A stretch of DNA of 32,480 nt from assembly GCA_030642885.1 (NCBI GenBank), contig DAOWMX010000001.1, positions 1-32,480 on the forward strand. Reading direction: 5' to 3'. The DNA is from Anaerolineales bacterium (GTDB lineage Bacteria > Chloroflexota > Anaerolineae > Anaerolineales > E44-bin32). The position numbers were made by a program, and so were the translations under genes. Positions 334 to 16,387 of the stretch are shown here, piece by piece; positions within the stretch are counted from its first letter, which is position 1; the number at the start of each line of letters is the position of its first letter. Under the pieces are notes generated by a model. It saw only the letters and a program-made list of their open reading frames with translations, had not been told where the DNA came from and made no database searches.

Positions 334-1794
334 TTAGATCAAACCTACACGCTCGTTGAACTCGACAATCAATCGATCGATCTCTGGTAGAAGCGCCTGG
401 ATCGAGGTCCAATAATCCCGATCGTACCACTGCGCCATGATTTCCTCGTAAGTCCGGCCCTGCTGCTCGACCCATGTGTAGTATTTTAAGTTATGGACAC
501 TGCGTCGATCCGTGTATCGAGTCTCGAGCAAATGATCGGTTTTAAGCCCATACAGGTCATTAGCGAAGTGAGCTGCGGCTTCTATCTTCAGATATTCACC
601 ATATTCCTCATGCATCTCTCTCAATCGGCTCTGATAAAGCTCCATAGAATCAGTAAAAACAGTGAGCACGATGTCGTTTTCGCCCAGTTCATAGTATTTA
701 GCGAACTTAATCGCCATTACGAGGTTGGCGATGCTGGAGAAGCCAAGCAGCTCCAGGTTGGCAATGAAAGCTTCGGGTACCCCTTTTTCAACTAGATACT
801 TATGCCCTGCTGGCTCGTTGAAGAGACGGGCCAGGTTGACAATCACATTGTCGTCGAGCGAAATGATCATATCGGTATTTTTTACATTGTGAATCCAGGG
901 GACATGTTTATCACCGATGCCTTCGATGCGATGTTCTCCAAAACCGTTCTCGAGCAAAGTCGGGCATTGCCAGGCTTCACCGGCAACAACCTTGCCTGAA
1001 GGGAAGATCTGCTTCAGGTATTCCCCACAAGCTAACGTCCCCGCTGACCCTGTGGTCAGCACTACCCCAGCGTAATTATCGTTCGGGCGAAGTTCCTTCT
1101 TAAGCACTTCCTCCATCGCATGTCCGGTGATGTCATAGTGCCAGAGGTAATTCCCAAATTCGTCAAACTGGTTGAAGATGACCACGTCGTCGCGGGTCTC
1201 GCGAAGTTCCCATGTCTTGTCGAAGATCTCTTTCACATTCGACTCGCTGCCAGGCGTGGCAATCACCTCACCCGCTACTTTTTCCAACCATTCGAAGCGC
1301 TCGCGGCTCATACCCTCTGGGAGGATGGCGATTGATTCACAAGCAAGCAGTGATGCATCATAGGCCCCACCACGACAGTAATTCCCCGTCGATGGCCAAA
1401 CTGCCTTGTCCTTAGCGGGATCAAATTGACCCGTGACTAGCCTCGGGACCAGGCATCCAAATGTTGCCCCAACTTTATGCGATCCCGTGGGCATCCATTT
1501 TCCAACCAAGGCGATGATCCGGGCACCCACACCGGTAAGTGAACTCGGAATCTCCAGATAGTTCACCCCTCCGAATCCACCGCCTTTCGGAGTGGGCTCG
1601 TTCTTCCACGTAATACGAAAGAGATTCTCCGGCGTCACATCCCAGAGCCCAAGTGAACTTAGCTTCTCTTTCATTGAATCAGGGATCAAACTCGGGTCTT
1701 TCATCTGCGCAAAAGTCGGGATGATGAAATTTCTCTCCCGCACTCTCTCGATGGTTTTCTCCAGCTTATCTTCATTAATTGTGAGATCGATCAT
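334..1794 (-). CDS. fold-type II (TrpB/CysK-like) PLP-dependent enzyme, 486 aa, substrate unknown
   Basis: Complete ORF with ATG at 1794. PTGSHKVGA (Lys107, codon 1474-1476) matches the PLP-lysine context of TrpB-type enzymes (TGSHK). STGNYCRGG is the Asn loop and TTGSAGT (aa 247-253) is the Gly-rich phosphate loop. A long helical C-terminal extension follows. The start overlaps the upstream GT2 stop by 20 nt. Confidence 0.75.
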   Translation of the reverse strand: MIDLTINEDKLEKTIERVRERNFIIPTFAQMKDPSLIPDSMKEKLSSLGLWDVTPENLFRITWKNEPTPKGGGFGGVNYLEIPSSLTGVGARIIALVGKWMPTGSHKVGATFGCLVPRLVTGQFDPAKDKAVWPSTGNYCRGGAYDASLLACESIAILPEGMSRERFEWLEKVAGEVIATPGSESNVKEIFDKTWELRETRDDVVIFNQFDEFGNYLWHYDITGHAMEEVLKKELRPNDNYAGVVLTTGSAGTLACGEYLKQIFPSGKVVAGEAWQCPTLLENGFGEHRIEGIGDKHVPWIHNVKNTDMIISLDDNVIVNLARLFNEPAGHKYLVEKGVPEAFIANLELLGFSSIANLVMAIKFAKYYELGENDIVLTVFTDSMELYQSRLREMHEEYGEYLKIEAAAHFANDLYGLKTDHLLETRYTDRRSVHNLKYYTWVEQQGRTYEEIMAQWYDRDYWTSIQALLPEIDRLIVEFNERVGLI

Positions 1795-2770
1795 GACGTT
1801 TCTTATTCCCTTCCTTTGGATTTATTTTGTTTTCTAAACTGATGGGATTCCGCACGATATAGAGCGGTCGGCCTTTAGCCTCATCATATATCCGACCGAT
1901 GTATTCCCCAAGGATCCCAAGAGAGATTAGCTGCACGCCTCCCAGAAATAATACCGCGATCAAGGTTGTTGCCTGACCAAGAAACGCCGGGCTTCCAACC
2001 AGTCTGAACGCAATCACGATAGGTATGGCGATAATACTCACGCCCGCTGCGAAAAAGCCGAGGTAGGTTGCGATCTGGAGCGGAAAGTAGGAAAAACCCG
2101 TGATGGCATTGAGCGCAAGGCGCAGCATTTTTCGAAACGGATACTTCGTCTCTCCAGCGAATCTCGCAGCTCGCTTATATGGCACTCCGGTTTGGCGGAA
2201 GCCAACCCACGCGGCCATGGCCCTTGGAAAACGATGCCTCTCGCGCATTTGAGACAGCGCATCCACTGCCTGCCGGTCCATCAATCGGAAATCCCCGGTA
2301 TCTAGCGGGATCTCAACATCGGTGATGCGGTTGATCAAGCGGTAAAACAAGGCTGCTGTGGTTTTCTTAAACCAGGTCTCGCCCTCGCGCTCCGTGCGCA
2401 CGGCGTACACGATTTCATAGCCCTCGCGCCATTTTTCAACCAAATCGGAGATGACCTCAGGCGGGTCCTGCAAATCAGAATCCATGATGATCACGGCGCG
2501 GCCCTGGCTGAAGTCCATCCCTGCAGTCACGGCGATTTGATGCCCAAAATTCCGGGCGAACATCACAGGTCTCACATGTGGATCGTCCACGCTTATCGCT
2601 TCGATCCACTCCGAGGAGCCATCCGTCGATCCATCGTCGATGAGAATGAGCTCCCATGGCTCACCCAGGTCATCCATGACCGTCTTCACCCGATCGTAGA
2701 GTTCCGGAAGCGACTCGATTTCGTTATAGACCGGCACTGCGACAGAGATGTTGATTTCGGATTTCGTCAT
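1775..2770 (-). CDS. family-2 glycosyltransferase, polyprenyl-phosphate sugar transferase type (GtrB/ArnC/DPM1-like)
   Basis: ISVAVPVYNE...LILIDDGSTDGS...IIMDSDLQDPPE is the classic GT2 DxD/ED pattern. Two C-terminal TM helices are present (FPLQIATYLGFFAAGVSIIAIPIVIAF and TLIAVLFLGGVQLISLGILGEYI). The ORF track starts at GTG 2779. I prefer ATG 2770 because GGAGGG sits 8 nt upstream, inside the end of the preceding gene. Confidence 0.8.
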   Translation of the reverse strand: MTKSEINISVAVPVYNEIESLPELYDRVKTVMDDLGEPWELILIDDGSTDGSSEWIEAISVDDPHVRPVMFARNFGHQIAVTAGMDFSQGRAVIIMDSDLQDPPEVISDLVEKWREGYEIVYAVRTEREGETWFKKTTAALFYRLINRITDVEIPLDTGDFRLMDRQAVDALSQMRERHRFPRAMAAWVGFRQTGVPYKRAARFAGETKYPFRKMLRLALNAITGFSYFPLQIATYLGFFAAGVSIIAIPIVIAFRLVGSPAFLGQATTLIAVLFLGGVQLISLGILGEYIGRIYDEAKGRPLYIVRNPISLENKINPKEGNKKRHDRSHN

Positions 2771-2775
2771 TGGCT

Positions 2776-4071
2776 TCACCCTCCGCCGTTCTTCTTCGCG
2801 CCGTCATCCAAAGCACTTTCGAGTGCTTTAAGCGTCGGTTCAATCACAAGCGGTTCACCGGCGGCATCCATCGCCCGCGCTACATCTTTCAACCCATTGC
2901 CGGTATTAAGCACAACGACACGGTCTCCCTGCGCAAGGAGGTTCTTCTCAACTGCGGCTAACAACCCGGCATAGGCAGCCGCTCCTGCGGGTTCGGCAAA
3001 CACAGCCGCCTCGCGGCCAAGCTCTGCAATCGCCTCTAAAATAGCGGAATCTGGAACTGCTATGTAAGCTCCACCGGTCTCCGTTGCGGCTCGCAAGGCG
3101 CGTAAACCATCACGCGGCTGGTCCACCGAGATGCTATCAGCCAGCGTATCTGCGCTCACCGGTTGGATCTCCTCCACGCCATCCTGGAAGGCATTATAAA
3201 TCGCAGCCGATCCTTCAGATTGGATCCCATAAAGCCGTGGGATTCTGTCGATCCAACCCAGGTTATGTAAATCTTTAAAGCCTTTATGCAAACCGGAGAT
3301 GATGTTCCCATCCCCAACGGACACGACAACAGCATCCGGCGTGGGCCATCGCTTCTTTCCAGAGCTCTCACCATCGTTTTCAATCGATAATTGTTCACAA
3401 ATTTCGAAGGCGGCGGTTTTCTTGCCCTCGGCTGTGAACGGGTTGAAACCCGTATTTCGGCAATACCAACCGAATCGCTCCGCCGCCTGAATGGTGAGAT
3501 CAAAGGCATCATCATAGGTGCCTTCGACGAGGACCACCCGTGCACCGAATATCAGGAGCTGCGCGATCTTTGCCGGTGGGGCTGTCGCCGGGGCGAGTAT
3601 TACCGCGGGCATCTTTGCCGCTGCCGCCATGCCTGCCAGCGCTGCTCCAGCGTTGCCGGTTGAAGCGGTAACGATTACTTCCACACCGATCTCCTGCCCA
3701 CGGGCAACTGCGACGGCGCTGGCGCGGTCTTTAAAAGAAGCGGTTGGGTTTCGCCCATCATCCTTCAACCAGAGCTTCTCCAGACCTAATTTCCCGGCGA
3801 TCGGCTGCAAATCGAAGAGCGGCGTCCAACCCACTGCCCTCAATGGAGTCCCCAAATGCCCCGGGTCTTGTACGGGGAGGAGCGGTAAATATCGCCAGAT
3901 GGAAGATTCCACTGAACGTCTGATGTCACCGGGTGAGACATGGCGACGAATCCTATCGTAATCAAGGATTACGTCTAAATTCCCTCCGTCATGGGGGCAG
4001 GTATATTGGACATCTTCTGGCCCAAGCTCCTGACCACAGATGGAACAGCGATAGCCTGTAAAGTTCGTCAT
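2776..4071 (-). CDS. threonine-synthase-family PLP enzyme with N-terminal Zn-ribbon (archaeal/thermophile type)
   Basis: The N-terminus YRCSICGQ...YTCPHDGG is a CxxC...CxH ribbon. TASFKDR carries the PLP lysine and ASTGNAGAA is the Asn loop. Length is 431 aa. The ATG at 4071 abuts the stop of the upstream permease gene (4072-4074) with 0 nt between them. Confidence 0.8.
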   Translation of the reverse strand: MTNFTGYRCSICGQELGPEDVQYTCPHDGGNLDVILDYDRIRRHVSPGDIRRSVESSIWRYLPLLPVQDPGHLGTPLRAVGWTPLFDLQPIAGKLGLEKLWLKDDGRNPTASFKDRASAVAVARGQEIGVEVIVTASTGNAGAALAGMAAAAKMPAVILAPATAPPAKIAQLLIFGARVVLVEGTYDDAFDLTIQAAERFGWYCRNTGFNPFTAEGKKTAAFEICEQLSIENDGESSGKKRWPTPDAVVVSVGDGNIISGLHKGFKDLHNLGWIDRIPRLYGIQSEGSAAIYNAFQDGVEEIQPVSADTLADSISVDQPRDGLRALRAATETGGAYIAVPDSAILEAIAELGREAAVFAEPAGAAAYAGLLAAVEKNLLAQGDRVVVLNTGNGLKDVARAMDAAGEPLVIEPTLKALESALDDGAKKNGGG

Positions 4072-5040
4072 TTACAGCCCTCGTTCACCGCGGATATAAG
4101 GCAAGCCCAGCGCTGCAGGTGAGCCCATGCGCTTGCGGATCGCCTCGCGTGAGCCAATCACAAGAACAACGATCGTAAATGCATAGGGCAGCATCTGCAG
4201 GAAAAATCCCCAATAAGGGTTGTAATAGAAGGGATTCCTAAGACCGAATATCTTCATCGGCCCCTGGATATCAAGGATCATTCGACGGAGAGCGCCGAAA
4301 GCGTAAGATCCTCCGGCTGCGCGTATCGGATCCCACTGTGCGAAAATCACCAGACCGATGGCGATCCACCCCTGGCCGGATGTGGTGAGATGGCTGAACC
4401 ACCCCGGAGAAACCGCCAGGCTGATCGTCGCCCCGGCAACCCCGGCGAGCATCCCGCCGACCAGAACATAGAAATAGCGCAAGCGGTTTACATTTATACC
4501 CAAGGCATCCGCGGCTGCCGGATACTCACCAATCGCTCGCAAATGCAGCCCCGGCCGCGTGCGGTTGATGTAATACCAGGCGAGAGGAACCAGCAGATAC
4601 CCCAGATAAACCATCACGCTTTGGTCTTCAAACATGATAGGGCCCAGGAAGGGAATGCTCACCAGACCTGGAATGCTAAACGAGGGTAAAAGGGCAACAG
4701 CCCCAGCCTTGCTTAACCCCTCGCCGAAAACCAGGCTCAGGCCTGTGCCGAGGAAGGTCAGAGCCAGGCCGCTTACAACCTGGTCGGCCTGAAGCTGGAT
4801 CGTGATTATTGCATGGACCTGGCTCAGCAGGCCAGCAGCGAGCATGGCGACAAACACTCCAAGCCAGGGATTGCCGGTCGCTAAAGCTGTTTTATAGGCG
4901 CTCATGGCGCCGATGAGCATCATCCCCTCAAGGCCAAGGTTTAGAATCCCCGATCTTTCGGTGAAGATCTCCCCGATGGTTGCGAATAAAAGAACCGTTC
5001 CGGAGGCGATGCCAGCATGCAGGATGATGATTGGATCCAT
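4072..5040 (-). CDS. ABC transporter permease (BMP/nucleoside-type importer, second permease)
   Basis: 322 aa, polytopic and hydrophobic throughout. It starts 2 nt after the stop of the first permease. This is the typical second membrane subunit of BMP-family uptake systems. Confidence 0.85.
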   Translation of the reverse strand: MDPIIILHAGIASGTVLLFATIGEIFTERSGILNLGLEGMMLIGAMSAYKTALATGNPWLGVFVAMLAAGLLSQVHAIITIQLQADQVVSGLALTFLGTGLSLVFGEGLSKAGAVALLPSFSIPGLVSIPFLGPIMFEDQSVMVYLGYLLVPLAWYYINRTRPGLHLRAIGEYPAAADALGINVNRLRYFYVLVGGMLAGVAGATISLAVSPGWFSHLTTSGQGWIAIGLVIFAQWDPIRAAGGSYAFGALRRMILDIQGPMKIFGLRNPFYYNPYWGFFLQMLPYAFTIVVLVIGSREAIRKRMGSPAALGLPYIRGERGL

Positions 5041-5042
5041 GT

Positions 5043-6176
5043 CTACGCCTCCTGCCCGATTTGCACAAGCCTTATCCGATTGCGGAGTAAGAAATCACTT
5101 CCAATAAGACAGACCAGGATGATCCCCTGGATAAGCATAGGAATACCGGATGGTTGGATCTCCCTGCCAGCCAGGAGCAGCCCACCGAAGAGAATCGAAA
5201 TCGGAACGACCAAAATAGGATTGAGTTTCGCCAGCCAGGCGATGATGATTCCCGTGAAGCCATAGCCGGAGGAGATCGCCCCCTGAAGGCGGTGTACAAC
5301 CCCAGAGATCTCCAACATGCCACCCAACCCCGCCAGTGCACCTGAAAGCATCATCACCAGGATCGTATTCCTGACGATGTTGATCCCCGCGTAGCGCGCG
5401 GCGCGCGGGTTGTCTCCAATCAAGCGAATCTCGTACCCCCACCGGCTGCGGTACATAATCCACCACACCACCCCAGCGGCAATTAAGGCTATGACGAATC
5501 CTAGATGGATGGTAAGCCCTCGAAACATTGGCACCTGAGCTGAGTAATCCGTCAATCGCGGCAGCCAGGCCGTTTTGGGAAACTGACGGCTCATCTGGAA
5601 TCCGCCTTCGGACCATACATCGAAGATGAAATAGTTGTTCCACGCCACAGCGATGTAGTTCATCATTAGCGTCGATATGATTTCATTGACATTGTATTTC
5701 GCTTTCAAATAGCCAGGAATAAATCCCCATAAAGCGCCCGCGAGCATACCCATGATCATCATCGCCGGGATCATCAGCCACGGCGAAGTCTCTGGCGGAA
5801 GAATGGGTGTTAGCACGACTAAACTTGCCCCGAAGGCACCCAAGTAGAATTGACCTTCAGCGCCAATATTCCACAGGCGCATCCTGAAGGCGACAACCGC
5901 TGCCAAACTGACGAGAATGAGCGGAGTAGCTTTTACCAAAGTGTCGGAGAACACGCCGATATCACCAAAAGCAGCTTTGGCCATGAAGGCATAGGCACGG
6001 AAGGGATCTCCACCCACGAGCATTAATACGATCCCTCCAAGAACCAATGCAAAAGTTACAGCGCCAAGCGAAACGATTAATCCCAGCCACCCCGGTTGCT
6101 TCATGCGGGGTTCCATCCGCAAACGGAACCGTGCTCCACCACGGTATTGAGCAAATAATGAAGGCTTGGTCGTCAT
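5043..6176 (-). CDS. ABC transporter permease (BMP/nucleoside-type importer, first permease)
   Basis: 377 aa, polytopic. Its start overlaps the ATPase stop by 4 nt (ATGA). Confidence 0.85.
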   Translation of the reverse strand: MTTKPSLFAQYRGGARFRLRMEPRMKQPGWLGLIVSLGAVTFALVLGGIVLMLVGGDPFRAYAFMAKAAFGDIGVFSDTLVKATPLILVSLAAVVAFRMRLWNIGAEGQFYLGAFGASLVVLTPILPPETSPWLMIPAMMIMGMLAGALWGFIPGYLKAKYNVNEIISTLMMNYIAVAWNNYFIFDVWSEGGFQMSRQFPKTAWLPRLTDYSAQVPMFRGLTIHLGFVIALIAAGVVWWIMYRSRWGYEIRLIGDNPRAARYAGINIVRNTILVMMLSGALAGLGGMLEISGVVHRLQGAISSGYGFTGIIIAWLAKLNPILVVPISILFGGLLLAGREIQPSGIPMLIQGIILVCLIGSDFLLRNRIRLVQIGQEA

Positions 6177-7744
6177 TGACTCACCTTCCTTGCCTCGACC
6201 AGATCCTCCTGGCGAGTCCCGGTCATCATTAGACCCAATGTTTCAGGGTCAGCTTCCCTCACCTCACCCATGATTTCTCCCTCATAAATCACGTAAACAC
6301 GATCCGAGAGCGAGATGAGTTCTTCCAATTCCTCCGAGATAAGAAGGATCGCAGCGCCATTCTCGCGCTGCTGGAGCAGCAAGCGTTGAACGGATTCTAT
6401 CGCCCCAACGTCCAACCCGCGCGTTGGCTGCATGGCAATCATCAATTTCGGCTCACAGGAGATCTCGCGCGCAAGAATCAAACGTTGTAGATTTCCTCCC
6501 GAGAGCAAACGTGCAGGGGTTTCCACTGTCGGCACCATGATGTCATAGGCTTCACGCAGCGTTTCTGCTTGAGTGGTAGCAGAGAGGCTGTCAATGGACC
6601 ACCCTTTCGAGATAGGCGGTTTCCGATACCCTTTCATGATCAGGTTGTCAGTGATGCTGAGGTTAGGGGCAGTACCGACATGGGTCCGATCCTCAGGGAT
6701 GTGTGAAACGCCCGCATCGATTATCTGTCTTACATGGCTTGACCTGCGCTGCCCTGAGATACTTCCATCAATGAGCACTTGCCCATGCACAATCACTTTT
6801 CCTTCTGTGATCGGGCGAAGACCGGTAATAGCTTCAGCCAACTCCGCTTGCCCATTTCCAGCCACACCGGCCAAGCCGACGATCTCACCAGCCGCAACGT
6901 GTAGAGATAAGCCGCGTAAAGCCTGAATGCCTTTATTGTTCAAAGCCTTGAGCCCTTCCACAGCCAGAACAGTGTCCCCAGGAGTATGCTCGACCTTATT
7001 CAATTGGAAGAGTACGTCGCGACCTACCATCTCGCGCGCCAGGTCCTGCTTCGTTATCTCTTTCGTAAGCAAACCCTCTGCGCTGAGCTTCCCCTTGCGC
7101 AAGACTGTAATCCGATCTGCAATCGCCATGACTTCGTCGAGCTTATGGCTGATGAAGATGATAGATTTCCCCTCGGCAATCATGGATCGAAGTGTAGTGA
7201 ACAGTTCTTGAATCTCCTGCGGGGCCAAGACCGCTGTTGGCTCGTCCATGATGAGCACTTTCGCTCCACGATAGAGCATCTTTAGTATCTCCACACGCTG
7301 CTGCTCACCGACGGACAATTGCCAGATTCTTGCTCGTGGGTCGACCTGTAAACCATACTGTTCCCCGAGTTCGGTGATGATTTGATCATAATGAGATAAA
7401 TTCATATTAAAGCGCGGTTCATCGAGGCCCAGGAGGATATTTTCCGTCACGGTTTGAGTGGGCACGAGCATAAAGTGCTGGTGGACCATGCCAATCCCGT
7501 AGTTGATGGCATCTCGCGGGGATCGCAGATCAACAACCTCACCATCAACCCGGATCGTACCTTCATCGGGCCTATATAATCCCGTGAGGATATTCACCAG
7601 GGTGCTCTTGCCTGCGCCGTTTTCGCCCAACAAGGCGTGGATCTCACCAGACCGCAAGGTGAAATCAACCTGGTCATTCGCCAAGACACCGGGAAACTGT
7701 TTAGAAATCCCTCTTAACTCAACAACATTGAGGTGGTCATCCAT
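6173..7744 (-). CDS. ABC transporter ATP-binding protein with two fused ATPase domains
   Basis: Walker A GENGAGKST and GVAGNGQ, signature LSVGEQQR and LSGGNLQR, Walker B LIMDEPT. The track starts at ATG 7777. I prefer ATG 7744 (MDDHLNVVELRGISKQF) because GGAG lies 7 nt upstream, while 7777 sits in the loop of the 7764-7792 hairpin. Confidence 0.85.
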   Translation of the reverse strand: MDDHLNVVELRGISKQFPGVLANDQVDFTLRSGEIHALLGENGAGKSTLVNILTGLYRPDEGTIRVDGEVVDLRSPRDAINYGIGMVHQHFMLVPTQTVTENILLGLDEPRFNMNLSHYDQIITELGEQYGLQVDPRARIWQLSVGEQQRVEILKMLYRGAKVLIMDEPTAVLAPQEIQELFTTLRSMIAEGKSIIFISHKLDEVMAIADRITVLRKGKLSAEGLLTKEITKQDLAREMVGRDVLFQLNKVEHTPGDTVLAVEGLKALNNKGIQALRGLSLHVAAGEIVGLAGVAGNGQAELAEAITGLRPITEGKVIVHGQVLIDGSISGQRRSSHVRQIIDAGVSHIPEDRTHVGTAPNLSITDNLIMKGYRKPPISKGWSIDSLSATTQAETLREAYDIMVPTVETPARLLSGGNLQRLILAREISCEPKLMIAMQPTRGLDVGAIESVQRLLLQQRENGAAILLISEELEELISLSDRVYVIYEGEIMGEVREADPETLGLMMTGTRQEDLVEARKVSQ

Positions 7745-7763
7745 ACTCAGCTCCGAAGATGAC

Positions 7764-7792
7764 GGGTCGACGCCCATATCGGACGTCGACCC
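7764..7792 (-). promoter_or_regulatory. intercistronic stem-loop between the binding-protein gene and the ATPase gene
   Basis: GGGTCGACG (7764-7772) and CGTCGACCC (7784-7792) form a perfect 9-bp GC-rich inverted repeat with an 11-nt loop. On the coding (minus) strand it is preceded by an A-run and is not followed by a U-run. Confidence 0.5.
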
Positions 7793-7814
7793 TTTTTCTG
7801 TTTATTTGTGTGGA

Positions 7815-9017
7815 CTACTCCGGCAATTCCGCAGTAATGCCCTCAGCCCACCACTTCATGCAGTACTCGCAGCCTAACCCAAACTCGGGGAAGGCATCCA
7901 GGTCAACTTGCTCAAGCGCTTTACCTTCGGGAACAATCAGATTGCCTTGATTGTCATAGATCGGGCCTGAGAACACATCAAAGCGGGTGAAATCTCCCAC
8001 CAGGGTGTCGGCCACCAGGTCACGAACAGCCTGGATCACATCTTCCGGAAGCTCAGCAACACCGGGCTGCAACTCCTCACCCTCCATGAAGCCGTACAGG
8101 CCGAGTGCTCCGGTATCACCATCAAAGTAATCCCAACCGGGGGTATAGGTCCCCGCGATCACGCCTTCGGCGATCTCCGCGTAAACCGGTCCCCAAACCC
8201 AGTAGGGCGCGGTCAGGCAGGCGTCGATTTTGCAGGAGCCGTACCAGTCATAGGTGACGCCCCATTTGCCCTTTTCCTGCGCTACATCAGCAACTGCTGG
8301 GGTGTCAGCACCCGTGAACACTACCTGTGCACCGGCATCGAACAACGAGGCTGCGGCCTCTTTCTCGATGATGGGATCATGCCAGGTGTTGATCCAGCGC
8401 ACGTCAAGCGTGCACTCCGGGCAGGTTTCCCTCATCCCCAACGCAATAGCGTTGCCGAGGCGGATCTCCTCCGGGATCGGGAAAGTCGCCATGTACCCCA
8501 GCTTCGGGTTTCCATCCATTTGTGCCCGTGCGCCAGCAAGCATCCCTGCCATGTACTTCATGTTTTCCATGGCACCGAACAGGTTGCCGAAGTTGGTCAT
8601 GTTGGATTTTATGCCCGAGATGTGGATATACGTGACATCCGGGAATTCTTCGGCGAGGACTTCCATGGGGTCCATGTAGCCAAAGGATGTGCCAAAGATC
8701 AGATCAAAGCCTTTCCGCGAGAGGCTGCGGAAAATCTGCTCCGAGTCAGCTCCCTCGGGTACGTTCTCGATATAGGCTATGTGGACATCCGGAACATTCT
8801 CTGCGACATATTCCAGGCCTTCGAAGTGCGCCTGGGACCAGCCACCATCGTCGTGAGGACCAATCAGGACCATGGCAATATTGAACTTGCCCTCTTCCAC
8901 CGCGGGGATCTCGAAACCTCCCACGACTTCCGGTGCCTCTTCCCCACCGCAGGCTGTAAGTGCCAGAGCCAACAGGGTAAGGAGAACAGCTAGGCGTAAC
9001 GCCATACTTCGTGACAT
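7815..9017 (-). CDS. BMP-family ABC substrate-binding lipoprotein (purine nucleoside-binding type)
   Basis: 400 aa. Signal peptide with lipobox LALALTAC-GG. The mature part has the BMP/PnrA-like pattern (NIAMVLIGPHDDGGWSQAHFEGL...). AGAGGAG lies 7 nt upstream of the ATG. Confidence 0.85.
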   Translation of the reverse strand: MSRSMALRLAVLLTLLALALTACGGEEAPEVVGGFEIPAVEEGKFNIAMVLIGPHDDGGWSQAHFEGLEYVAENVPDVHIAYIENVPEGADSEQIFRSLSRKGFDLIFGTSFGYMDPMEVLAEEFPDVTYIHISGIKSNMTNFGNLFGAMENMKYMAGMLAGARAQMDGNPKLGYMATFPIPEEIRLGNAIALGMRETCPECTLDVRWINTWHDPIIEKEAAASLFDAGAQVVFTGADTPAVADVAQEKGKWGVTYDWYGSCKIDACLTAPYWVWGPVYAEIAEGVIAGTYTPGWDYFDGDTGALGLYGFMEGEELQPGVAELPEDVIQAVRDLVADTLVGDFTRFDVFSGPIYDNQGNLIVPEGKALEQVDLDAFPEFGLGCEYCMKWWAEGITAELPE

Positions 9018-9121: not shown

Positions 9122-10081
9122 TTATGAAATGACTATTCGAGTGCCCGTTTTCCCTTCTAGAGCAAGCTCGATATTCACAGGATCTGTGATCAGGGCTTCC
9201 TTACCACCACGTTCTAGAAAGCCAACAATGGCCCGAATCTTGGGTTCCATGCTTCCCTTGCCGAATTGGCCATCGGCGAGATGCTTTTTCGCCTCAGCCA
9301 AAGTCATTCGATCAATCCATTGCTGATCCGGTTTATTGAAATTCAGCGCGACTTTCTCCACTGCTGTTGAGATTAAAAGCAGATCCGCCTGGATGCTATT
9401 TGCCAGTAATGCCGAGGCGAAGTCCTTATCGATCACCGCCTCAATCCCGGTGAGTTCGCCTTTCTCATTTTCAACTACGGGAATGCCCCCGCCGCCCACA
9501 CCGATGACCACAAAACCATCTCCGATCAACGACTGGATCGCATCTTGCTCGATGATGCGGACAGGTAACGGCGACGGGACAACGCGCCGCCAACCTCGTC
9601 CTGCATCCTCCACGACCGTCCAACCTTCTTTCTTACTATGTTCCGATGCGGTCCCCTCATCCATGAAAGAACCAATCGGCTTCGATGGATTCTGGAAGGC
9701 AGGATCGTTTGGATCGACTAAGACCTGCGTAACAACTGTTGCCGATTTCTTGTCGAGCCCACGCAGTAGGAATTCGTTGTAAAGCGCTCGCTGGAACATA
9801 TAGCCGATGGCACCTTGCGTGTCAGCTCCACATGTATCCAAGGGTACGGGGTGAAGCTCATGCAGCGCAAGTTCAACCCGGCGGAGGATGAAGCCCACCT
9901 GCGGTCCATTGCCATGCGTGATTACGACGTCCCAACCCTCTTCGATCATGCCGGCGATATGGGTCATAGATTCACCCGCTGCCGCATATTGATCCGCAAC
10001 TGTTCTGTGTTGCTTATCTTTGATTAGAGAGTTGCCGCCAACAGCGACTACGGCAATTTTTCTTCCACTTGATTTGCTCAT
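9122..10081 (-). CDS. arcC: carbamate kinase
   Basis: 319 aa. KIAVVAVGGNSL...VITHGNGPQVG...IGVGGGGIPV are the canonical carbamate kinase motifs. It starts 15 nt after the stop of the upstream transcarbamylase gene. Confidence 0.9.
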   Translation of the reverse strand: MSKSSGRKIAVVAVGGNSLIKDKQHRTVADQYAAAGESMTHIAGMIEEGWDVVITHGNGPQVGFILRRVELALHELHPVPLDTCGADTQGAIGYMFQRALYNEFLLRGLDKKSATVVTQVLVDPNDPAFQNPSKPIGSFMDEGTASEHSKKEGWTVVEDAGRGWRRVVPSPLPVRIIEQDAIQSLIGDGFVVIGVGGGGIPVVENEKGELTGIEAVIDKDFASALLANSIQADLLLISTAVEKVALNFNKPDQQWIDRMTLAEAKKHLADGQFGKGSMEPKIRAIVGFLERGGKEALITDPVNIELALEGKTGTRIVIS

Positions 10082-10096
10082 TCACAAACCTCCAAA

Positions 10097-11077
10097 CTAG
10101 CGCATCGTTAATGCCATGACGGCTTTTTGTGCATGCAGACGATTCTCTGCCTCATCGAACACGACGCTATGCGGTCCGTCGATAACGCCATCCGTGACCT
10201 CGATGTTACGATCGGCGGGAAGGGGATGCATGTAAATTGAATCGGCTTTGGCCAGCCCCATTTTCTTCTCATCCGTAATCCAGTCTTTATACTTATCCTG
10301 GATTTTCTTCCCTTCCTCGGGATCTGTCGTCGTCAATAAAGGTCCCCAGGACTTAGCGTAGACGATGTCAGCATCTTTTACCGCCGCATTCATATCATCG
10401 ACGACTTCAAACCCTGTGCCGAATTTCTTCGCCTGCGCCTTCGCTTGATCCATGATCTCCGGCATCAACTTGAATTCTGGAGGATGAGCCAAAACAACAT
10501 CGAGACCAAAGCGGGGCATCTGTAAGATTAGCGATTGCGGCACTGAGATAGGTTTCAAGTAGGAAGATGCATAAGCCCAGGAGACCACCATCTTCTTTCT
10601 GCGCAGATCCCTGCCCTTCTTCTCGATGATCGTCATGAGATCGGCCAGGATCTGGAATGGATGGTAGAACTCACACTGCATGTTGAAGACAGGCTCGCGC
10701 GAGGCTTCCGCGACCAGGTTTAGGTACCGATTTCCAATCCCCCAATCGACGTGCCGGATTGCGATTCCATCGAAATAACGACCGAAGATCTCCCCCATCT
10801 CCTTCTCGGTATCTCCATGAGAAATCTGGGTTGTCCGCGATTCGATAAAAGCGGCATGCCCTCCCAGCTGAGCCATCCCCGCCTCAAACGAACCGCGTGT
10901 GCGAGTGCTAGAGAAGAAGAACAACATCGCCAGAACCTTATCTCGTAAGTAAGGATGGGGTTCTCCAAGCGCCCGCTTGCGCTTAAGATCAAAAGCTACT
11001 TCCAGAACGGTTTCGACCTCCTCACGGGTAAAATCGAGGTCACCGATGAGGTCTCTTCCACGTAAATCTGTTTGCAT
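10097..11077 (-). CDS. ATCase/OTCase-superfamily transcarbamylase of the ArgF'/YgeW-like (acyl-ornithine, knotted) branch, substrate unknown
   Basis: 326 aa. The carbamoyl-phosphate motif is FSSTRTRGSFE. HPFQILADL replaces HPTQ, and MHPLPADRNIEV replaces HCLP. IVYAKSWG stands where OTCases have DxxxSMG. From memory, the segments PVFNMQCEFYHPFQ, MVVSWAYASSYLKPISVPQS and VTDGVIDGPHSVVFDEAENR parallel Bacteroides/Xanthomonas ArgF'. Confidence 0.75.
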   Translation of the reverse strand: MQTDLRGRDLIGDLDFTREEVETVLEVAFDLKRKRALGEPHPYLRDKVLAMLFFFSSTRTRGSFEAGMAQLGGHAAFIESRTTQISHGDTEKEMGEIFGRYFDGIAIRHVDWGIGNRYLNLVAEASREPVFNMQCEFYHPFQILADLMTIIEKKGRDLRRKKMVVSWAYASSYLKPISVPQSLILQMPRFGLDVVLAHPPEFKLMPEIMDQAKAQAKKFGTGFEVVDDMNAAVKDADIVYAKSWGPLLTTTDPEEGKKIQDKYKDWITDEKKMGLAKADSIYMHPLPADRNIEVTDGVIDGPHSVVFDEAENRLHAQKAVMALTMR

Positions 11078-11264
11078 GGACGCTTCATCTCCTATCTTAT
11101 GGTTATGGGTTCCTTTTTTTCGATAGTTCAGATCGGCGTTGAGCTCTTTGGTTCATCGAGTCTCCTGCACCTATCCAGGTTGTTTGAGCTCACCTTTCAA
11201 ACTCCACCTGCACTAACTATTCGACTCTATTGTTCGTTCCTCTTGCTTCCGATAATCGACGTAC

Positions 11265-12218
11265 TCACTCCATAGCGCCGAGGACGGACGCCAACAGCCC
11301 CATGCGCATGACCACACCATTGAACGCTTCCAGCCAGTATCGAGACCAACGTGTGGCGTCAACATCGGGAGGAATCTCATCCATCCGCGGCAGGGAGTGC
11401 AATAGGATCGCGTCCGACTTTGCTTTACCGGACAGCAGTTCACGCGTGATCTTGTAATTCGCGGGTGTCAAGCCGACGTCCCCATCCCGTTCGTCACGGG
11501 ATTTGGTGTAATCCGGCTGGACGACCGGCTCTACCAAGATTACATCCGCTTCACTAATCGCTTGCTCCACATGTTCTGCCTCAGCGAAATCGAGACTGAG
11601 TAGTTCAAGCTCTTCTTTAAACTCATCCGTGAGAGACATCTCAGGCGGGGATACGAACGTGATCGGACAATCAAATTGGGTCAGGCCATAGGCTAAGGAG
11701 TGCATTGTTCGCATGCGCATATCGCCAACAGCCAGCCAGCGAAGCCCATCTAGACGGCCTTTCTCCTGATGTACAGTGTACAGGTCGGTGAGTATCTGAG
11801 TCGGGTGTTCCCCCCAGCCATCACCGCCGTTGATAATCGGAATAGAAGCCCATTTCGCGGCCTCATGCGGCGCGCCCTGCTCGAAATGCCGCATCACGAT
11901 CACATCACCGTAGAACTCCAGCATCTTCACTGTGTCCTTAATCGACTCCTGATAGTAATCTCCCGCCCGAGTCATCTTTGCATCGGCAAAGCCTGTCACT
12001 TGCCCGCCCAGGCGTATCATCGCTGCTTCGTGAGCAAGACGGGTTCGAGTGCTTGGTTGGTAGAAAGCTGTAACCAGCGTTTTCTCTGATAGCAAATCTG
12101 TATTGCGTCGATCGCGCGCAAATGGCGCCAAACGGTCACACACTTCGAAAATTCGGTAATACTCTTCCCTCTCAAATCCTTTTAGGGAAAGTATGTCTCG
12201 TCCAGAAAAACTGCGCAT
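11265..12218 (-). CDS. aspartate-carbamoyltransferase-like (PyrB paralogue) transcarbamylase, non-canonical second-substrate site
   Basis: QPSTRTR, VMRH, GEHPTQ, GDMRMRTMHS and HSLPRMDEI match ATCase catalytic-chain motifs. The (T/L)RxQxER aspartate-binding segment is replaced by VEPVVQPDYTKSRDERDGD. The track start 12290 gives a basic, non-homologous extension. I use ATG 12218 (MRSFSGRDILSLKGF) because GGAGGAG lies 8 nt upstream. Confidence 0.75.
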   Translation of the reverse strand: MRSFSGRDILSLKGFEREEYYRIFEVCDRLAPFARDRRNTDLLSEKTLVTAFYQPSTRTRLAHEAAMIRLGGQVTGFADAKMTRAGDYYQESIKDTVKMLEFYGDVIVMRHFEQGAPHEAAKWASIPIINGGDGWGEHPTQILTDLYTVHQEKGRLDGLRWLAVGDMRMRTMHSLAYGLTQFDCPITFVSPPEMSLTDEFKEELELLSLDFAEAEHVEQAISEADVILVEPVVQPDYTKSRDERDGDVGLTPANYKITRELLSGKAKSDAILLHSLPRMDEIPPDVDATRWSRYWLEAFNGVVMRMGLLASVLGAME

Positions 12219-12292: not shown

Positions 12293-13036
12293 TTATGGCA
12301 ACCGACGGTTAATATGAAATCGAAAGGTGCCTGGCAAGAAATAACTATACGTGTGGTCGATCACTTCTCCATCTTTTGAATAAAGCTGGGCTTCGAAGAA
12401 CAGCAAGGCATCCCCGCGCTGAATTTTCAGATGACGGGCCACCTCCGGGGAAGCCGATACTGCGGTGATATCTGTGGGAGATTGCCAGATTTCAGGTTCA
12501 TCTCGCTGAAGGAGTACTTCCAGGACCGAACCCCGGAATTCACCTGCTTTGATATCCACAGGCAGATATTTTTCCGGGAGAATGTCAATAAGGAAGGCAA
12601 CAGGTCTCCCTTCTGTCAAGATCACCCTCGAGATTTCGATCAATGGAAGTTCATTTCCCCATCTGAATCGCTGCAGTTCTTCCTCTGTCGCTGTCCGCTC
12701 CCTGATTTCCAGATCCCCCGTCTCGACCTTAAGGCCGATCCGATCTGCGAGCCGCTCGATACTCTCCAGGGTTTCGAGCCCGGTGTCAATCACATGAGGT
12801 AGTTGAGTAACGTACGTGCCCACACCCTGACGACGTACGATCCTCCCTCGACGCTCGAAGATTCTCATCGCCTCGCGCAGGGTCGCGCGTGAAACCCCAA
12901 GGCTGCGGGCTAATTTTGGTTCAGACGGAAGATACGTCCCTGGTTCGACGCTCTCAAGGATCTCAGAAAGAGTCTCAGCTGTACTTTCATAAAGAGGGCG
13001 GCGCTTTGTCTCTTCTCGTATTTCCATTCGACTCAT
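12293..13036 (-). CDS. GntR-family transcriptional regulator, HutC subfamily (winged HTH plus UTRA-like effector domain)
   Basis: The N-terminal YLPSEPKLARSLGVSRATLREAMRIFERRGRIVRRQGVGTYV is a GntR wHTH. The roughly 160-aa C-terminal domain fits UTRA size. The track ORF (start 13204) would overlap the adenine deaminase gene by 122 nt with a Cys/Trp/Leu-rich extension. I use ATG 13036; ATG 13027 is an alternative. Confidence 0.8.
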   Translation of the reverse strand: MSRMEIREETKRRPLYESTAETLSEILESVEPGTYLPSEPKLARSLGVSRATLREAMRIFERRGRIVRRQGVGTYVTQLPHVIDTGLETLESIERLADRIGLKVETGDLEIRERTATEEELQRFRWGNELPLIEISRVILTEGRPVAFLIDILPEKYLPVDIKAGEFRGSVLEVLLQRDEPEIWQSPTDITAVSASPEVARHLKIQRGDALLFFEAQLYSKDGEVIDHTYSYFLPGTFRFHINRRLP

Positions 13037-13082
13037 TTCTTCACTCGCGTTGTCAGCTTCATGGGACCGATATTTTAAGAGC

Positions 13083-14879
13083 CTAATCCCCGCCTTCCAC
13101 CACAGGAATAACTTCAAAACGGTTAACGTCAACGAGACCTTTATCGGAGATTCGCAGATCGGGAATAACAACGAGTGCCAGAAGACTGAGCTGCATATTG
13201 GCATTGTTCAAGTTGCAGCCACATTCTTTAAAAGCGTCGAGAACGCGTTCAGCCTTCTCAGCGACGATCTCTGCCCGTTCTTCCGACATCAAGCCCGCGA
13301 TCGGCAGCTCTACCAAGGCGACAGTTTTCCCCTCGCGGATAACGATCTGTCCACCGCCTACCTCCGCGAGCCGATTGGCGGCCAGAGCCATATCCGTCTC
13401 ATTTGTCCCGACGACGATCATATGGTGAGAATCATGGGCTACGGTTGAGGCGATGGCGCAGGGGCGATCGAAACCAAACCCGTGGACAAACCCTACTTGA
13501 ACTTCGCCCGTCGCCTGGTGACGCTCAACAAGCGCAACCTTGGCGAGATCCTGTTTGATATCAACTGCGATCGTTCCATCTACCGCCTTCATTTCCATCT
13601 TAAGATGTTGCGTCGGAGCCTGGTTCTCAATGACTCCGATGACGTTGACAGTAAAAACACCATCTTTTGAGACATCGACAGAAAAATCTTCTGCGCGGAG
13701 TTCTTTTCCAAGGCGGACGGAAGACTTCACCTCAGGCGGATATACAAAATCGGGGATATCCACCAGAAGTTCTCCATCCTCGGCAATGAGCCTGCCACGT
13801 GCAAAGACCATCTCTGCAGCAAAGGATTCCAGCTCGCCTACGAGCAGTAGGTCTGCATACCGCCCGGGAGCGATCTGTCCGATATCGCCGGCGAGGCCAA
13901 AATGCTCCGCGGTGTTGAGCGTTGCCATCTGAATAGCGGTGATCGGCTCCAGACCCTGCTCGATTGCATGCCGCACAACTCGATCCATGTGCCCATCATG
14001 CACTAATGTCCCGGAGTGGCTGTCATCGGTTACCAGGAGGAAATGGCGAGGGTCGAGACCCTCTTCCGTGACAGCTCGCACCTGACTCGCCACGTCATGC
14101 CACGCTGACCCGAGCCTCATCATCACCTTCATGCCCTGGCGGGCACGCGCGAGCGCATCCTCCAGACGGGTGCCCTCGTGGTCATCTTCCGGTCCCCCGG
14201 CAACGTAACCGTGGAACGGCTTACCCAGGTCAAGCGAGGCATAGTGCCCTCCGATGACCTTTCCTGCAGCGCGGGTTTCCGCCATCTCCAGGTGCATTTT
14301 CTCGTCACTGTTAAAGACACCCGGGAAGTTCATCATTTCGCCTAACCCAATAATCCCCGGCCAGGACAGCGCCTCGGCAACTTCCTCAGGGCCAATCGCG
14401 GCGCCGGGCGTCTCCAAGCCCGGAGCGGATGGCACACAAGATGGAACCTGTACCCACACATGAATAGGCTGAATAGCCGCCTCATCTGCCATGAGACGCA
14501 CACCATCAAGCCCGAAGACATTTGCGATCTCATGTGGGTCGATGAACATCCCTGTCGTGCCGCGCGGGGCCACCGCACGTACAAACTCTCCAACCGTGAT
14601 CATGCCCGACTCAACATGCATATGGCCATCCAACAAGCCGGGGACAATATGGCGGCCTTCTGCCTCGATAACTCGAGTGTCAGGCCCTATGATGTGACTC
14701 GCGTCCTGGCCTACAAAGGCAATGCGTTCCCCAAAAATCGCAACGGAGATTCCTGGGAGGATTTCCCCGGACTGAACGCAAACCCATCGACCGCCGCGTA
14801 TGACGACATCCGCCGGTTTTCTGCCCATGGCGACATCGACGAGTGATCGGCTTAATTCGCTCAAACTTTTAGTATCCAT
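13083..14879 (-). CDS. ade: adenine deaminase
   Basis: About 598 aa. VIRGGRWV...ILPGISVAI, the HMHVESG metal motif, FIDPHEIANV and the large C-terminal domain are typical of Ade/AdeC. I prefer ATG 14879 (MDTKSL) because AGAGAGGAAG lies immediately upstream. GTG 14894 from the track has no SD sequence. Confidence 0.85.
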   Translation of the reverse strand: MDTKSLSELSRSLVDVAMGRKPADVVIRGGRWVCVQSGEILPGISVAIFGERIAFVGQDASHIIGPDTRVIEAEGRHIVPGLLDGHMHVESGMITVGEFVRAVAPRGTTGMFIDPHEIANVFGLDGVRLMADEAAIQPIHVWVQVPSCVPSAPGLETPGAAIGPEEVAEALSWPGIIGLGEMMNFPGVFNSDEKMHLEMAETRAAGKVIGGHYASLDLGKPFHGYVAGGPEDDHEGTRLEDALARARQGMKVMMRLGSAWHDVASQVRAVTEEGLDPRHFLLVTDDSHSGTLVHDGHMDRVVRHAIEQGLEPITAIQMATLNTAEHFGLAGDIGQIAPGRYADLLLVGELESFAAEMVFARGRLIAEDGELLVDIPDFVYPPEVKSSVRLGKELRAEDFSVDVSKDGVFTVNVIGVIENQAPTQHLKMEMKAVDGTIAVDIKQDLAKVALVERHQATGEVQVGFVHGFGFDRPCAIASTVAHDSHHMIVVGTNETDMALAANRLAEVGGGQIVIREGKTVALVELPIAGLMSEERAEIVAEKAERVLDAFKECGCNLNNANMQLSLLALVVIPDLRISDKGLVDVNRFEVIPVVEGGD

Positions 14880-14918
14880 CTTCCTCTCTTTCACAATGTA
14901 GGGTATGGAACCAATAGC

Positions 14919-16298
14919 TCAATCCCTATTCGCTAGATTTAATGCCACGCGATTATGGGTCTCTATTAGCGATGGAAGTTCGACGGGCTGCAGCTCCCCC
15001 TCTGAAACTACCGCCCGGCCATGGACATAGTTGTAATCGACATGCACAGGATTACAGAAGAACATCGCCGCTAATGGATCGTGAAGCGCACCCGAAAAGT
15101 CAACACGGTCTAAGTTCATAGCGATGAAATCCGCGCACATACCTTCCTGGAGGGCTCCGATATCATCCCTCCCTAAAACCTCCGCCCCTCCAATGGTAGC
15201 CAGAGCGAGAACCTGACGGGCAGTCAGCAATGATTCCTCGCCGTCGATCTCCGGAGCTACAGCAGCTCCAACGCGCGAGAGCAGCATTGCCTGGCGTGCT
15301 TCTGCGATCAGATGAGAGCTATCATTGCTTGCCGAACCATCAACGCCGATACTAACTTTCACACCTCGTGATAAAAACCGTCGAATAGGCGCGATTCCTG
15401 AGGCGAGGCGCATGTTGGATGATGGACAATGCGCTACACCCATACCACCATCCGCCATCCGCTCGACCTCTTCGGGGTTGATATGAACAGCATGCGCAAA
15501 CCAAACATCCTCCCCGGCCCAATCCAGCATCTCAACGTATTCCAGGGGACGATGCCCAAACTTGTTTACACAAAACGATTCTTCATCTAGCGTTTCCGCA
15601 AGATGCGTATGGAGATGAACACCGCTAGACCTGGCAAGAGCTGCACTCTCCCGCATGAGATCCGGCGTAACTGAGAACGGCGAGCAAGGGGCAACGACGA
15701 TCCTGACCATCGCTCCCGGGTTGGGATCATGATAGGTCTCGATCACCCGCTGTGTATCCTTGAGAATAAACTCCTCTGCCTCCACAACATCATCGGGGGG
15801 CAGCCCGCCCTTGCTTTCCCCCAGGCTCATGGAGCCTCTACTGGCATGCAGGCGCATACCCATGCCTCGAGCCGCTTCGATCTGATCATCGAGTCGACAG
15901 TCATTTGGGAATATATAATGGTGGTCAGATGTCGTCGTACAGCCAGATAATGCCAGTTCAGCTAACCCTAACTGGGTGGATACACGGATAGCTTCCGGTG
16001 TAAGCCCGGCCCAAATAGGATATAAGGTTTTTAACCAACTGAAGAGATCGGCATCCTGCGCTTGAGGAATTACGCGCGTGAGGGTTTGGTACAGATGATG
16101 ATGTGTGTTTACCAGACCGGGGAGAACAATATGTCCATCGAGGTCGAGGATTTCATCGGCTTTCTTGGGAAGTTCGTCAGTGGGACCAACCTGCTTGATC
16201 CAACCGTTTTCGGCGTAAAAACCTCCATTTGGGATCTCACGCCGTTGACCATCCATCGTGACAAGAAGCATGGCATTACGGATCAATAACGTCGCCAT
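14919..16298 (-). CDS. amidohydrolase of the 8-oxoguanine/guanine deaminase (SsnA/AtzB-like) group
   Basis: LPGLVNTHHHLYQTLTR, HLHTHLAE, FAHAVH and VDGSASND are the metal and catalytic motifs of the COG0402-type deaminases. I use ATG 16298 (MATLLIRNAMLL) because GGGAGGG lies 4-5 nt upstream. The track start 16352 falls inside the promoter. Confidence 0.8.
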   Translation of the reverse strand: MATLLIRNAMLLVTMDGQRREIPNGGFYAENGWIKQVGPTDELPKKADEILDLDGHIVLPGLVNTHHHLYQTLTRVIPQAQDADLFSWLKTLYPIWAGLTPEAIRVSTQLGLAELALSGCTTTSDHHYIFPNDCRLDDQIEAARGMGMRLHASRGSMSLGESKGGLPPDDVVEAEEFILKDTQRVIETYHDPNPGAMVRIVVAPCSPFSVTPDLMRESAALARSSGVHLHTHLAETLDEESFCVNKFGHRPLEYVEMLDWAGEDVWFAHAVHINPEEVERMADGGMGVAHCPSSNMRLASGIAPIRRFLSRGVKVSIGVDGSASNDSSHLIAEARQAMLLSRVGAAVAPEIDGEESLLTARQVLALATIGGAEVLGRDDIGALQEGMCADFIAMNLDRVDFSGALHDPLAAMFFCNPVHVDYNYVHGRAVVSEGELQPVELPSLIETHNRVALNLANRD

Positions 16299-16312
16299 CA
16301 GCCCTCCCTGGA

Positions 16313-16387
16313 TTGACAACGCGAGTCTAGCATCTCCATCTAAATGCGTCAATTGTCAGACAACATAGACAGGGCGGATAATTGTCA
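16313..16387. promoter_or_regulatory. cluster of TTGTCA/TGACAA operator-like half-sites overlapping the promoter
   Basis: The perfect palindrome TTGTCAGACAA (16353-16363) abuts the -35. TTGACAA (16313-16319) is at the predicted transcription start and TTGTCA (16382-16387) lies upstream. AATTGTCA occurs twice (16351-16358 and 16380-16387). These are plausible sites for the GntR/HutC regulator encoded in the same train. Confidence 0.4.
16324..16352 (-). promoter_or_regulatory. sigma70-type promoter for the amidohydrolase-led gene train
   Basis: Minus strand: TTGACG (16352-16347), a 17-nt spacer, then TAGACT (16329-16324). This lies about 25 nt upstream of ATG 16298 and just downstream of the folD terminator. 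Confidence 0.55.

Follow-up and report, generated by a model that had tools for sequence, protein, structure and literature searches.

The closest described relative of the enzyme considered here is YgeW of Escherichia coli, which in 2025 was found to act in the reductive urate pathway, where it phosphorolyses 2,3-diureidopropanoate before the carbamate kinase YqeA makes ATP (PMC12507026; bioRxiv 10.1101/2025.04.24.650524). The two papers disagree on the ureido group that is removed first, and a commentary lists the matter as open (PMC12990295). Eight residues have been proposed to bind the second substrate of YgeW, namely Q98*, D124, Q160, S200, K203, K270, D334 and E344, and the N-acetyl- and N-succinylornithine transcarbamylases (AOTCase and SOTCase) are recognised by S[LM]RT, a tryptophan in a long 80's loop, E144 and K252, with E92, N185 and K302 marking the acetyl type (PMC4581275). 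A further group, the aspartate transcarbamylase (ATCase)-like 'pseudo-ATCases', carries HSLP and has lost the RxQxER motif. Barba et al. (2013) describe a group 2 member in Nocardioides sp. JS614 that adjoins a ygeW homologue, xdhABC and hyuA; the only pseudo-ATCase assayed, a group 1 enzyme from Rubrobacter, was tested on allantoate and ureidoglycine, which belong to a different pathway (PMC4016543). Here we consider a carbamoyltransferase, termed TCx, encoded on a 32,480-nucleotide stretch of DNA (the window) from an Anaerolineales bacterium (contig DAOWMX010000001.1). We judge it probable that TCx is a compact enzyme of the YgeW (YTCase) lineage acting in the lower steps of anaerobic, reductive urate breakdown (the 2,8-dioxopurine pathway).

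The window is an entire contig of a metagenome-assembled genome (MAG) of 2.3 Mb and 82.6% completeness. TCx and the kinase gene that follows it are arranged as listed.

10097..11077, minus strand: TCx, a predicted short-form YgeW-type carbamoyltransferase of 326 aa with an ATG start (open reading frame and translation)
10082..10096, minus strand: 15-nt spacer with a GGAGG ribosome-binding site between transferase and kinase (from the sequence)
9122..10081, minus strand: carbamate kinase, 319 aa (NF009007, 400 bits against a cut-off of 266; TIGR00746, 369 against 358)

A first-pass annotation had described a 326-aa enzyme 15 nt upstream of a carbamate kinase, and the open reading frames and translation bear it out. 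The segments it quoted are present, TCx containing PVFNMQCEFYHPFQ, VVSWAYASSYLKPISVPQS and VTDGVIDGPHSVVFDEAENR, and Pfam OTCace_N and OTCace account for both transcarbamylase domains. Residues 240-245 indeed read YAKSWG where the ornithine transcarbamylase (OTCase) motif DxxxSMG was expected, this motif being absent from the translation, and residues 284-287 read HPLP for HCLP, although HPLP is common in the family. The same annotation saw an importer next to the pair and no arg genes around it; both points hold, Pfam and NCBIfam profile scans of the window having found no arginine genes.

The kinase ATG follows the TCx stop codon after the 15-nt gap that holds GGAGG. No terminator-like site was found between the two genes, in a promoter and terminator scan that performed no better than on shuffled sequence. 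Contigs from cold-seep RNA libraries (metatranscriptomes) match the locus at 90-99% identity and bridge the kinase/transferase junction. Contig depth in these libraries is unfit for ranking expression, and the bridging of junctions alone is used, as weak support. We infer that the kinase is translationally coupled to TCx.

Family and active site of TCx

Judged against the curated NCBIfam cut-offs, TCx falls short of every transcarbamylase model in that collection. It scores 240.6 bits on the OTCase model TIGR00658 (cut-off 280.85), 253 on a further OTCase model (306), 250 on the AOTCase model NF003384 (288) and 205 on the putrescine transcarbamylase (PTCase) model TIGR04384 (500). Four transcarbamylases are encoded in the genome. 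The genuine pyrB adjoins pyrC and pyrF outside the window and the genuine OTCase lies on another contig (C108) beside a YfcC-type antiporter; since these account for two of the four, both transferases of the window are extra paralogues. With DxxxSMG missing, a score below the TIGR00658 cut-off and a genuine OTCase elsewhere in the genome, TCx is judged not to be an OTCase.

Two trees were calculated, one of 117 rows and a more careful one of 57 rows that includes orthologues from other phyla. The AOTCase clade was labelled by NF003384 scores, its members reaching 390-426 bits. In the larger tree this clade is separate and TCx falls in the sister group together with E. coli YgeW. In the 57-row tree the AOTCase clade has support of 100/100 with TCx outside it, the joint TCx/YgeW clade has 91/91, and constraining the TCx subclade to join the AOTCases lowers the log-likelihood (lnL) by 38 units. 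The short forms enclose E. coli YgeW with two long-form relatives, which are sister to a Planctomycetota sequence (100/96), and the tree suggests that the long YgeW may be a derived offshoot of a compact form. A predicted place for TCx on the AOTCase/SOTCase/YgeW ('knotted') side of the superfamily is supported. The phylogeny, together with the carbamate kinase pairing, favours the first-pass assignment to the ArgF'/YgeW branch in a catabolic layout, and clustering inside the biosynthetic AOTCase clade, which that annotation had considered, is seen in neither tree. The segments quoted there as parallels with the Xanthomonas and Bacteroides enzymes are present, but the closer likeness is to YgeW, as seen in STRT, the glutamine at the position of E144 and the residues equivalent to S200, K203, D334 and E344.

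Pairwise alignment of TCx with E. coli YgeW gives 35% identity with gaps of 11, 9, 7 and 6 residues, and TCx has no extension at either end (326 versus 396 aa). The proline-rich loop is nearly identical in the two proteins, SWAYASSYLKPISVPQS in TCx and TWAYSPSYGKPLSVPQG in YgeW, and aligns without gaps. Seven of the eight proposed substrate residues (Q98, Q160, S200, K203, K270, D334 and E344) are identical in TCx and in all orthologues examined, positions at which the AOTCase and OTCase rows differ. TCx probably works like YgeW. The HPLP and HCLP forms are both widespread inside the orthologue family, so that HPLP alone is no sign of different chemistry. An AlphaFold2 model of TCx, with a predicted local distance difference test (pLDDT) value of 96.8, displays a secondary structure without the extra helices of YgeW. 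Foldseek returns template modelling (TM) scores of 0.89 to OTCase, AOTCase and YTCase structures alike, a comparison in which knotted and unknotted folds are not separated.

Genomic company and the predicted substrate

The distribution of TCx was surveyed in 201 Chloroflexota genomes, with orthologues defined at 54% identity or more and SsnA called at E <= 1e-100. Canonical YgeW scoring over the TIGR03316 cut-off is found in none of the 201, and the top matches to this model are the TCx orthologues. Such orthologues are present in 39 genomes, a count that includes one genome flagged as unpublished (G145) on which no conclusion rests. SsnA occurs in 42 genomes, 34 of which also carry a TCx orthologue, and in at least 13 genomes the two genes lie within about 10 kb of each other. 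The close homologues of TCx are from Anaerolineales.

A survey of neighbours covered 55 named loci of a species-level genome collection, with orthologues at 50% identity or more. They span at least 10 phyla, with Chloroflexota, Actinomycetota, Acidobacteriota, Gemmatimonadota and Woeseiaceae represented, and Verrucomicrobiota, Planctomycetota, Sumerlaeota, Caldisericota and Eisenbacteria as further lineages. Carbamate kinase adjoins the orthologue in 39 of the 55 loci, and either YgeY or an ATCase-like paralogue does so in 42; SsnA, HyuA and XdhD-like genes are also among the neighbours. In one Streptosporangiaceae locus the transferase and kinase stand in a row with the paralogue, an F420 luciferase-like gene, SsnA, HyuA and an XdhD-like gene. 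No arg genes were seen near 20 tabulated Chloroflexota loci, where the probes were window genes only with no arg gene among them; for the wider set of related loci the probes were window and urate-pathway genes, again with no arg gene included.

The genome that supplies the window has upper-pathway genes on two further contigs. One (C251) encodes CofD, CofC, an F420 luciferase-like reductase, a YgfK-like protein, SsnA (513 bits, over its cut-off), a YgfM-like and an XdhD-like protein, whilst HyuA (538 bits), another molybdenum hydroxylase and F420 genes are on the other (C297). The YgfK-like flavoprotein is present beside the F420 reductase, so that two candidate yanthine reductases coexist in this genome. 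On these two contigs (loci L063 and L064) the upper urate-pathway genes are interleaved with CofC, CofD and CofE, and accompanied by the F420 luciferase-like reductase, an F420-dependent NADP oxidoreductase and the YgfK-like protein, an iron-sulfur flavoprotein.

Phylogeny, active site, co-occurrence and neighbours all tie TCx to the pathway of YgeW, and for this reason 2,3-diureidopropanoate is put forward as candidate; the substrate is likely to be this compound or one of its mono-ureido products. The first-pass annotation had left the substrate as an open question, a position now overtaken by the 2025 work on YgeW and by the cross-phylum context. The proposed route would start with an XdhD-like hydroxylase, a YgfK-like and/or F420-dependent reductase, SsnA and HyuA, which together would open the purine to 2,3-diureidopropanoate. 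TCx would then use phosphate to take off one ureido group as carbamoyl phosphate, from which, with ADP, carbamate kinase would generate ATP, CO2 and NH3.

The upstream paralogue and other neighbours

The remaining features of the locus are as follows.

11265..12218, minus strand: ATCase-like 'pseudo-ATCase' paralogue, 317 aa from the ATG at 12218 (TIGR00670, motifs)
11078..11264, minus strand: 187-nt spacer between both transferase genes, no feature recognised
12293..13204, minus strand: GntR/UTRA (HutC-type) regulator (Pfam GntR and UTRA), found beside TCx in related loci
13083..14894, minus strand: adenine deaminase (TIGR01178, 509 bits against a cut-off of 472.5), a conserved neighbour
14919..16352, minus strand: 8-oxoguanine-deaminase-type amidohydrolase (NF006055, 673 bits against a cut-off of 532), a conserved neighbour
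7815-9017, minus strand: BMP-family binding protein (Pfam Bmp)
6173-7777, minus strand: ABC ATPase (Pfam ABC_tran)
5043-6176 and 4072-5040, minus strand: two permeases (Pfam BPD_transp_2)
2776-4071, minus strand: ThrC-like pyridoxal phosphate (PLP) enzyme
1775-2779, minus strand: family 2 glycosyltransferase (GT2)
334-1794, minus strand: CysK/TrpB-like PLP enzyme, 486 aa

The second transcarbamylase, 187 nt upstream of TCx, was passed over in the first-pass finding. It scores 235.8 bits on TIGR00670, just under the cut-off of 236.95, and shares 33% identity with E. coli PyrB. HSLP is present and the aspartate motif RxQxER is absent. Whether the paralogue belongs to group 2 or group 3 is ambiguous, because the alignment is disturbed by an 8-residue insertion at the motif. 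One RNA-library contig crosses the spacer between the transferases, in which the promoter and terminator scan, no better than on shuffled sequence, gave neither a terminator-like site nor a convincing promoter; an Rfam scan of the whole window, spacer included, returned nothing.

Across related genomes, the position directly upstream of TCx is occupied by YgeY, by the paralogue or by both, and one or the other is present in 38 of the 39 orthologue-bearing Chloroflexota genomes. Most of these have no paralogue and pair TCx with YgeY. Five lack YgeY (G000, the source of the window, with the 82.6% completeness given above, and G175, G088, G187 and G160 at 95-99%), and in all five the paralogue is next to TCx. 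This distribution, drawn from related genomes that are not independent samples, is consistent with the paralogue standing in for YgeY at the second ureido group. The HPLP form is present in 19 of 20 paralogue-bearing loci. HPLP was considered as a marker of the paralogue-bearing form and rejected, as it occurs also with YgeY alone (10 loci) or with neither partner.

The paralogue would probably remove the second ureido group by phosphorolysis likewise, in place of the hydrolase YgeY, with a second ATP as the result. Taken further, TCx and the paralogue may form a double-phosphorolysis module in which the paralogue has displaced YgeY and urate yields two ATP rather than one, a tentative proposal to which we give somewhat less than an even chance. 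A pocket of the ATCase type suits an alpha-N-carbamoyl acid. On the double-phosphorolysis proposal the second intermediate would therefore be 3-amino-2-ureidopropanoate, which, if true, would settle the dispute over regiochemistry between the 2025 papers.

The genes at 4072..9017 are an importer of the nucleoside/purine type, and the BMP/ABC importer is kept downstream of the kinase in many related loci. In Chloroflexota the most constant immediate neighbours are the adenine-deaminase-like and 8-oxoguanine-deaminase-like amidohydrolases. By profile score the amidohydrolase at 14919..16352 is not SsnA, the SsnA model giving 114 bits only. The two deaminases and the importer would feed purines into the pathway. 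A search of five related genomes yielded no canonical YgeX, the weak best matches falling on the ThrC-like gene. Both PLP enzymes travel with TCx/SsnA/YgeY clusters in several phyla and are candidates for handling diaminopropanoate once the second ureido group is gone. The GT2 glycosyltransferase gene between them is unexplained.

At its longest, the open reading frame of the GntR regulator shares about 120 nt with the adenine deaminase gene. As Pfam places the beginning of the GntR domain only at residue 72, the true start is probably downstream of 13204.

Four SsnA-bearing Chloroflexota genomes without a close TCx orthologue (G044, G049 and G015, loci L048 to L050 respectively, and also G025) have a tandem pair of divergent transcarbamylases with carbamate kinase, beside a BMP/ABC importer and deaminases. 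One member is some 45-50% identical to TCx and has SLRT, E160 and HCLP; the other is about 36% identical with SVRT, A160, R270 and HPMP. The pair may be a second, independent two-transferase module. Separately, a 563-kb contig labelled Opitutales (L088, CBDDEL010000013.1) carries a 70%-identical orthologue and carbamate kinase. It is far nearer the Chloroflexota and Actinomycetota forms than is the other Verrucomicrobiota orthologue, only 55% identical to TCx, which suggests that the gene was transferred laterally or else that the contig was misbinned or mislabelled.

Alternative readings and comparison with known systems

Several questions should be addressed in assessing the assignment. How well does TCx conform to YgeW? 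Could the two transferases of the locus act in the opposite order? Might the adjacent deaminases supply some other ureido compound, or might the enzyme be anabolic?

A number of observations weigh against placing TCx in the YgeW pathway. It scores only 182 bits on TIGR03316 (cut-off 500) and 187 on NF005538 (cut-off 453), and has neither the terminal helices of YgeW nor the insertions in the 120's and 240's loops. Because it fails these cut-offs and lacks the insertions, TCx is classed with the YgeW lineage as a short variant and not as a canonical member. Support for the joint clade drops to 60/51 once the long branch P0154 is excluded, and the approximately unbiased (AU) test on forcing the TCx subclade with the AOTCases is borderline, at p = 0.053, with no formal rejection. 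D124 of YgeW corresponds to an alignment gap in the TCx subclade and Cys330, of HCLP, is proline, so specificity could differ from that of YgeW. Five orthologue-bearing genomes have no SsnA at E <= 1e-100, and in the genome under study, an incomplete MAG, TCx and the upper-pathway genes lie on different contigs, so that any physical linkage would be conjectural. The RNA-library contigs cannot prove a single transcript, and the libraries may contain DNA. Phosphorolysis of 2,3-diureidopropanoate itself has been shown for E. coli YgeW alone (PMC12507026; bioRxiv 10.1101/2025.04.24.650524).

The departures at D124 and Cys330 lend themselves to a reading within the same pathway but with the roles swapped. 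The paralogue would act first on 2,3-diureidopropanoate and TCx on the mono-ureido product, albizziin or 3-amino-2-ureidopropanoate, or else the subclade with HPLP and no D124 would have shifted to the other ureido group. The association of HPLP with all but one of the 20 paralogue loci is in keeping with this, as is the unsettled regiochemistry of YgeW itself (PMC12990295). However, most genomes pair the TCx orthologue with YgeY and have no paralogue, exactly as E. coli pairs YgeW with YgeY, the HPLP form also occurs in the 10 loci with YgeY alone, and the other seven proposed substrate residues are unchanged. We regard such an exchange as unlikely. Less probable still is a catabolic role for TCx on some other ureido compound derived from the adjacent deaminases, for example a deiminase product or, from a different purine route, allantoate, ureidoglycine or 4-ureido-5-imidazolecarboxylate. 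The constancy of the two amidohydrolases beside TCx in Chloroflexota and the activity on allantoate and ureidoglycine reported for the Rubrobacter pseudo-ATCase (PMC4016543) speak for it. Yet both deaminases pass ordinary purine-deaminase cut-offs and neither opens the ring, and outside Chloroflexota it is the SsnA, YgeY, HyuA and XdhD neighbours that stay whilst the deaminases are often lost. An amidohydrolase-type deiminase making the ureido substrate from a guanidino compound was also considered and dropped, the neighbours being ordinary purine deaminases and the SsnA/HyuA link the better explanation.

We hold it very improbable that TCx serves arginine synthesis as an anabolic transcarbamylase of the acyl-ornithine (AOTCase/SOTCase-like) or another ornithine type, even though source annotations name close relatives ornithine or N-acetylornithine carbamoyltransferase, the NF003384 score is not far under its cut-off and the AU test leaves an AOTCase grouping formally unrejected. 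TCx is outside a fully supported AOTCase clade, and S[LM]RT, the long 80's loop with tryptophan, E144 and K302 are all missing. Its company is always catabolic, with a standard OTCase elsewhere in the genome and arg genes seen neither in the window nor at the 20 Chloroflexota loci, the latter probed with window genes only.

The preferred reading, of TCx as a compact YgeW-lineage enzyme, bears on how such genes are recognised. Its relatives, named ornithine or N-acetylornithine carbamoyltransferase in databases, are mostly from uncultured bacteria of sediment, soil and digesters. The curated YgeW models miss the family, and surveys that use an E. coli-like YgeW as marker would for that reason undercount the urate pathway outside the gut. 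The variant with the paralogue in place of YgeY is a natural case in which to ask which ureido group leaves first, and it may give an extra ATP per urate, which would be relevant to energy-limited anaerobes and to the engineering of urate-degrading strains.

Among known systems, TCx shares with E. coli YgeW and YqeA a common clade, STRT, the seven substrate residues and the proline-rich loop, and its orthologues share with YgeW the partners carbamate kinase, SsnA, HyuA, YgeY and XdhD. The differences are in size, YgeW of 396 aa (PDB code 3Q98) alone having the terminal helices, an 11-residue insert in the 120's loop and a two-helix insert in the 240's loop, and in motifs, TCx having HPLP and HPFQ for HCLP and HPTQ and an OTCase-like C-terminal ENRLHAQKA. 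In this locus, moreover, the partner of TCx is the ATCase-like enzyme and not YgeY. The upper-pathway gene set on C251 and C297 matches the Chloroflexota variant mentioned in PMC12507026.

The ArgF' of Xanthomonas (PDB code 3KZC) and the Bacteroides enzyme (PDB code 1JS1) represent a sister lineage whose fold compares with TCx at a TM score of 0.89. YAKSWG with its conserved lysine and a W-x-Y...KP proline-rich loop are common to TCx and these acyl-ornithine enzymes. TCx has STRT and not the SMRT or SLRT of AOTCase, glutamine for E144, glutamate for K302, and a short 80's loop with glutamine in which Trp77 is missing; of the AOTCase marks (S[LM]RT, tryptophan, E144 and K252) only the lysine of YAKSWG is common to both. 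The context of TCx is catabolic and without arg genes, unlike that of the acyl-ornithine enzymes.

The paralogue resembles the pseudo-ATCases (PMC4016543) in being ATCase-like with H[ST]LP and in loss of the RxQ aspartate motif, and its position beside a YgeW-type gene in a purine cluster recurs in an Actinomycetota locus (L097). The arginine and agmatine deiminase pathways are alike in coupling phosphorolysis of a ureido compound to ATP formation and in having adjacent transferase and kinase genes. They differ in the lineage and substrate of the transferase, and in that here the ureido group would come from hydrolytic opening of a reduced purine.

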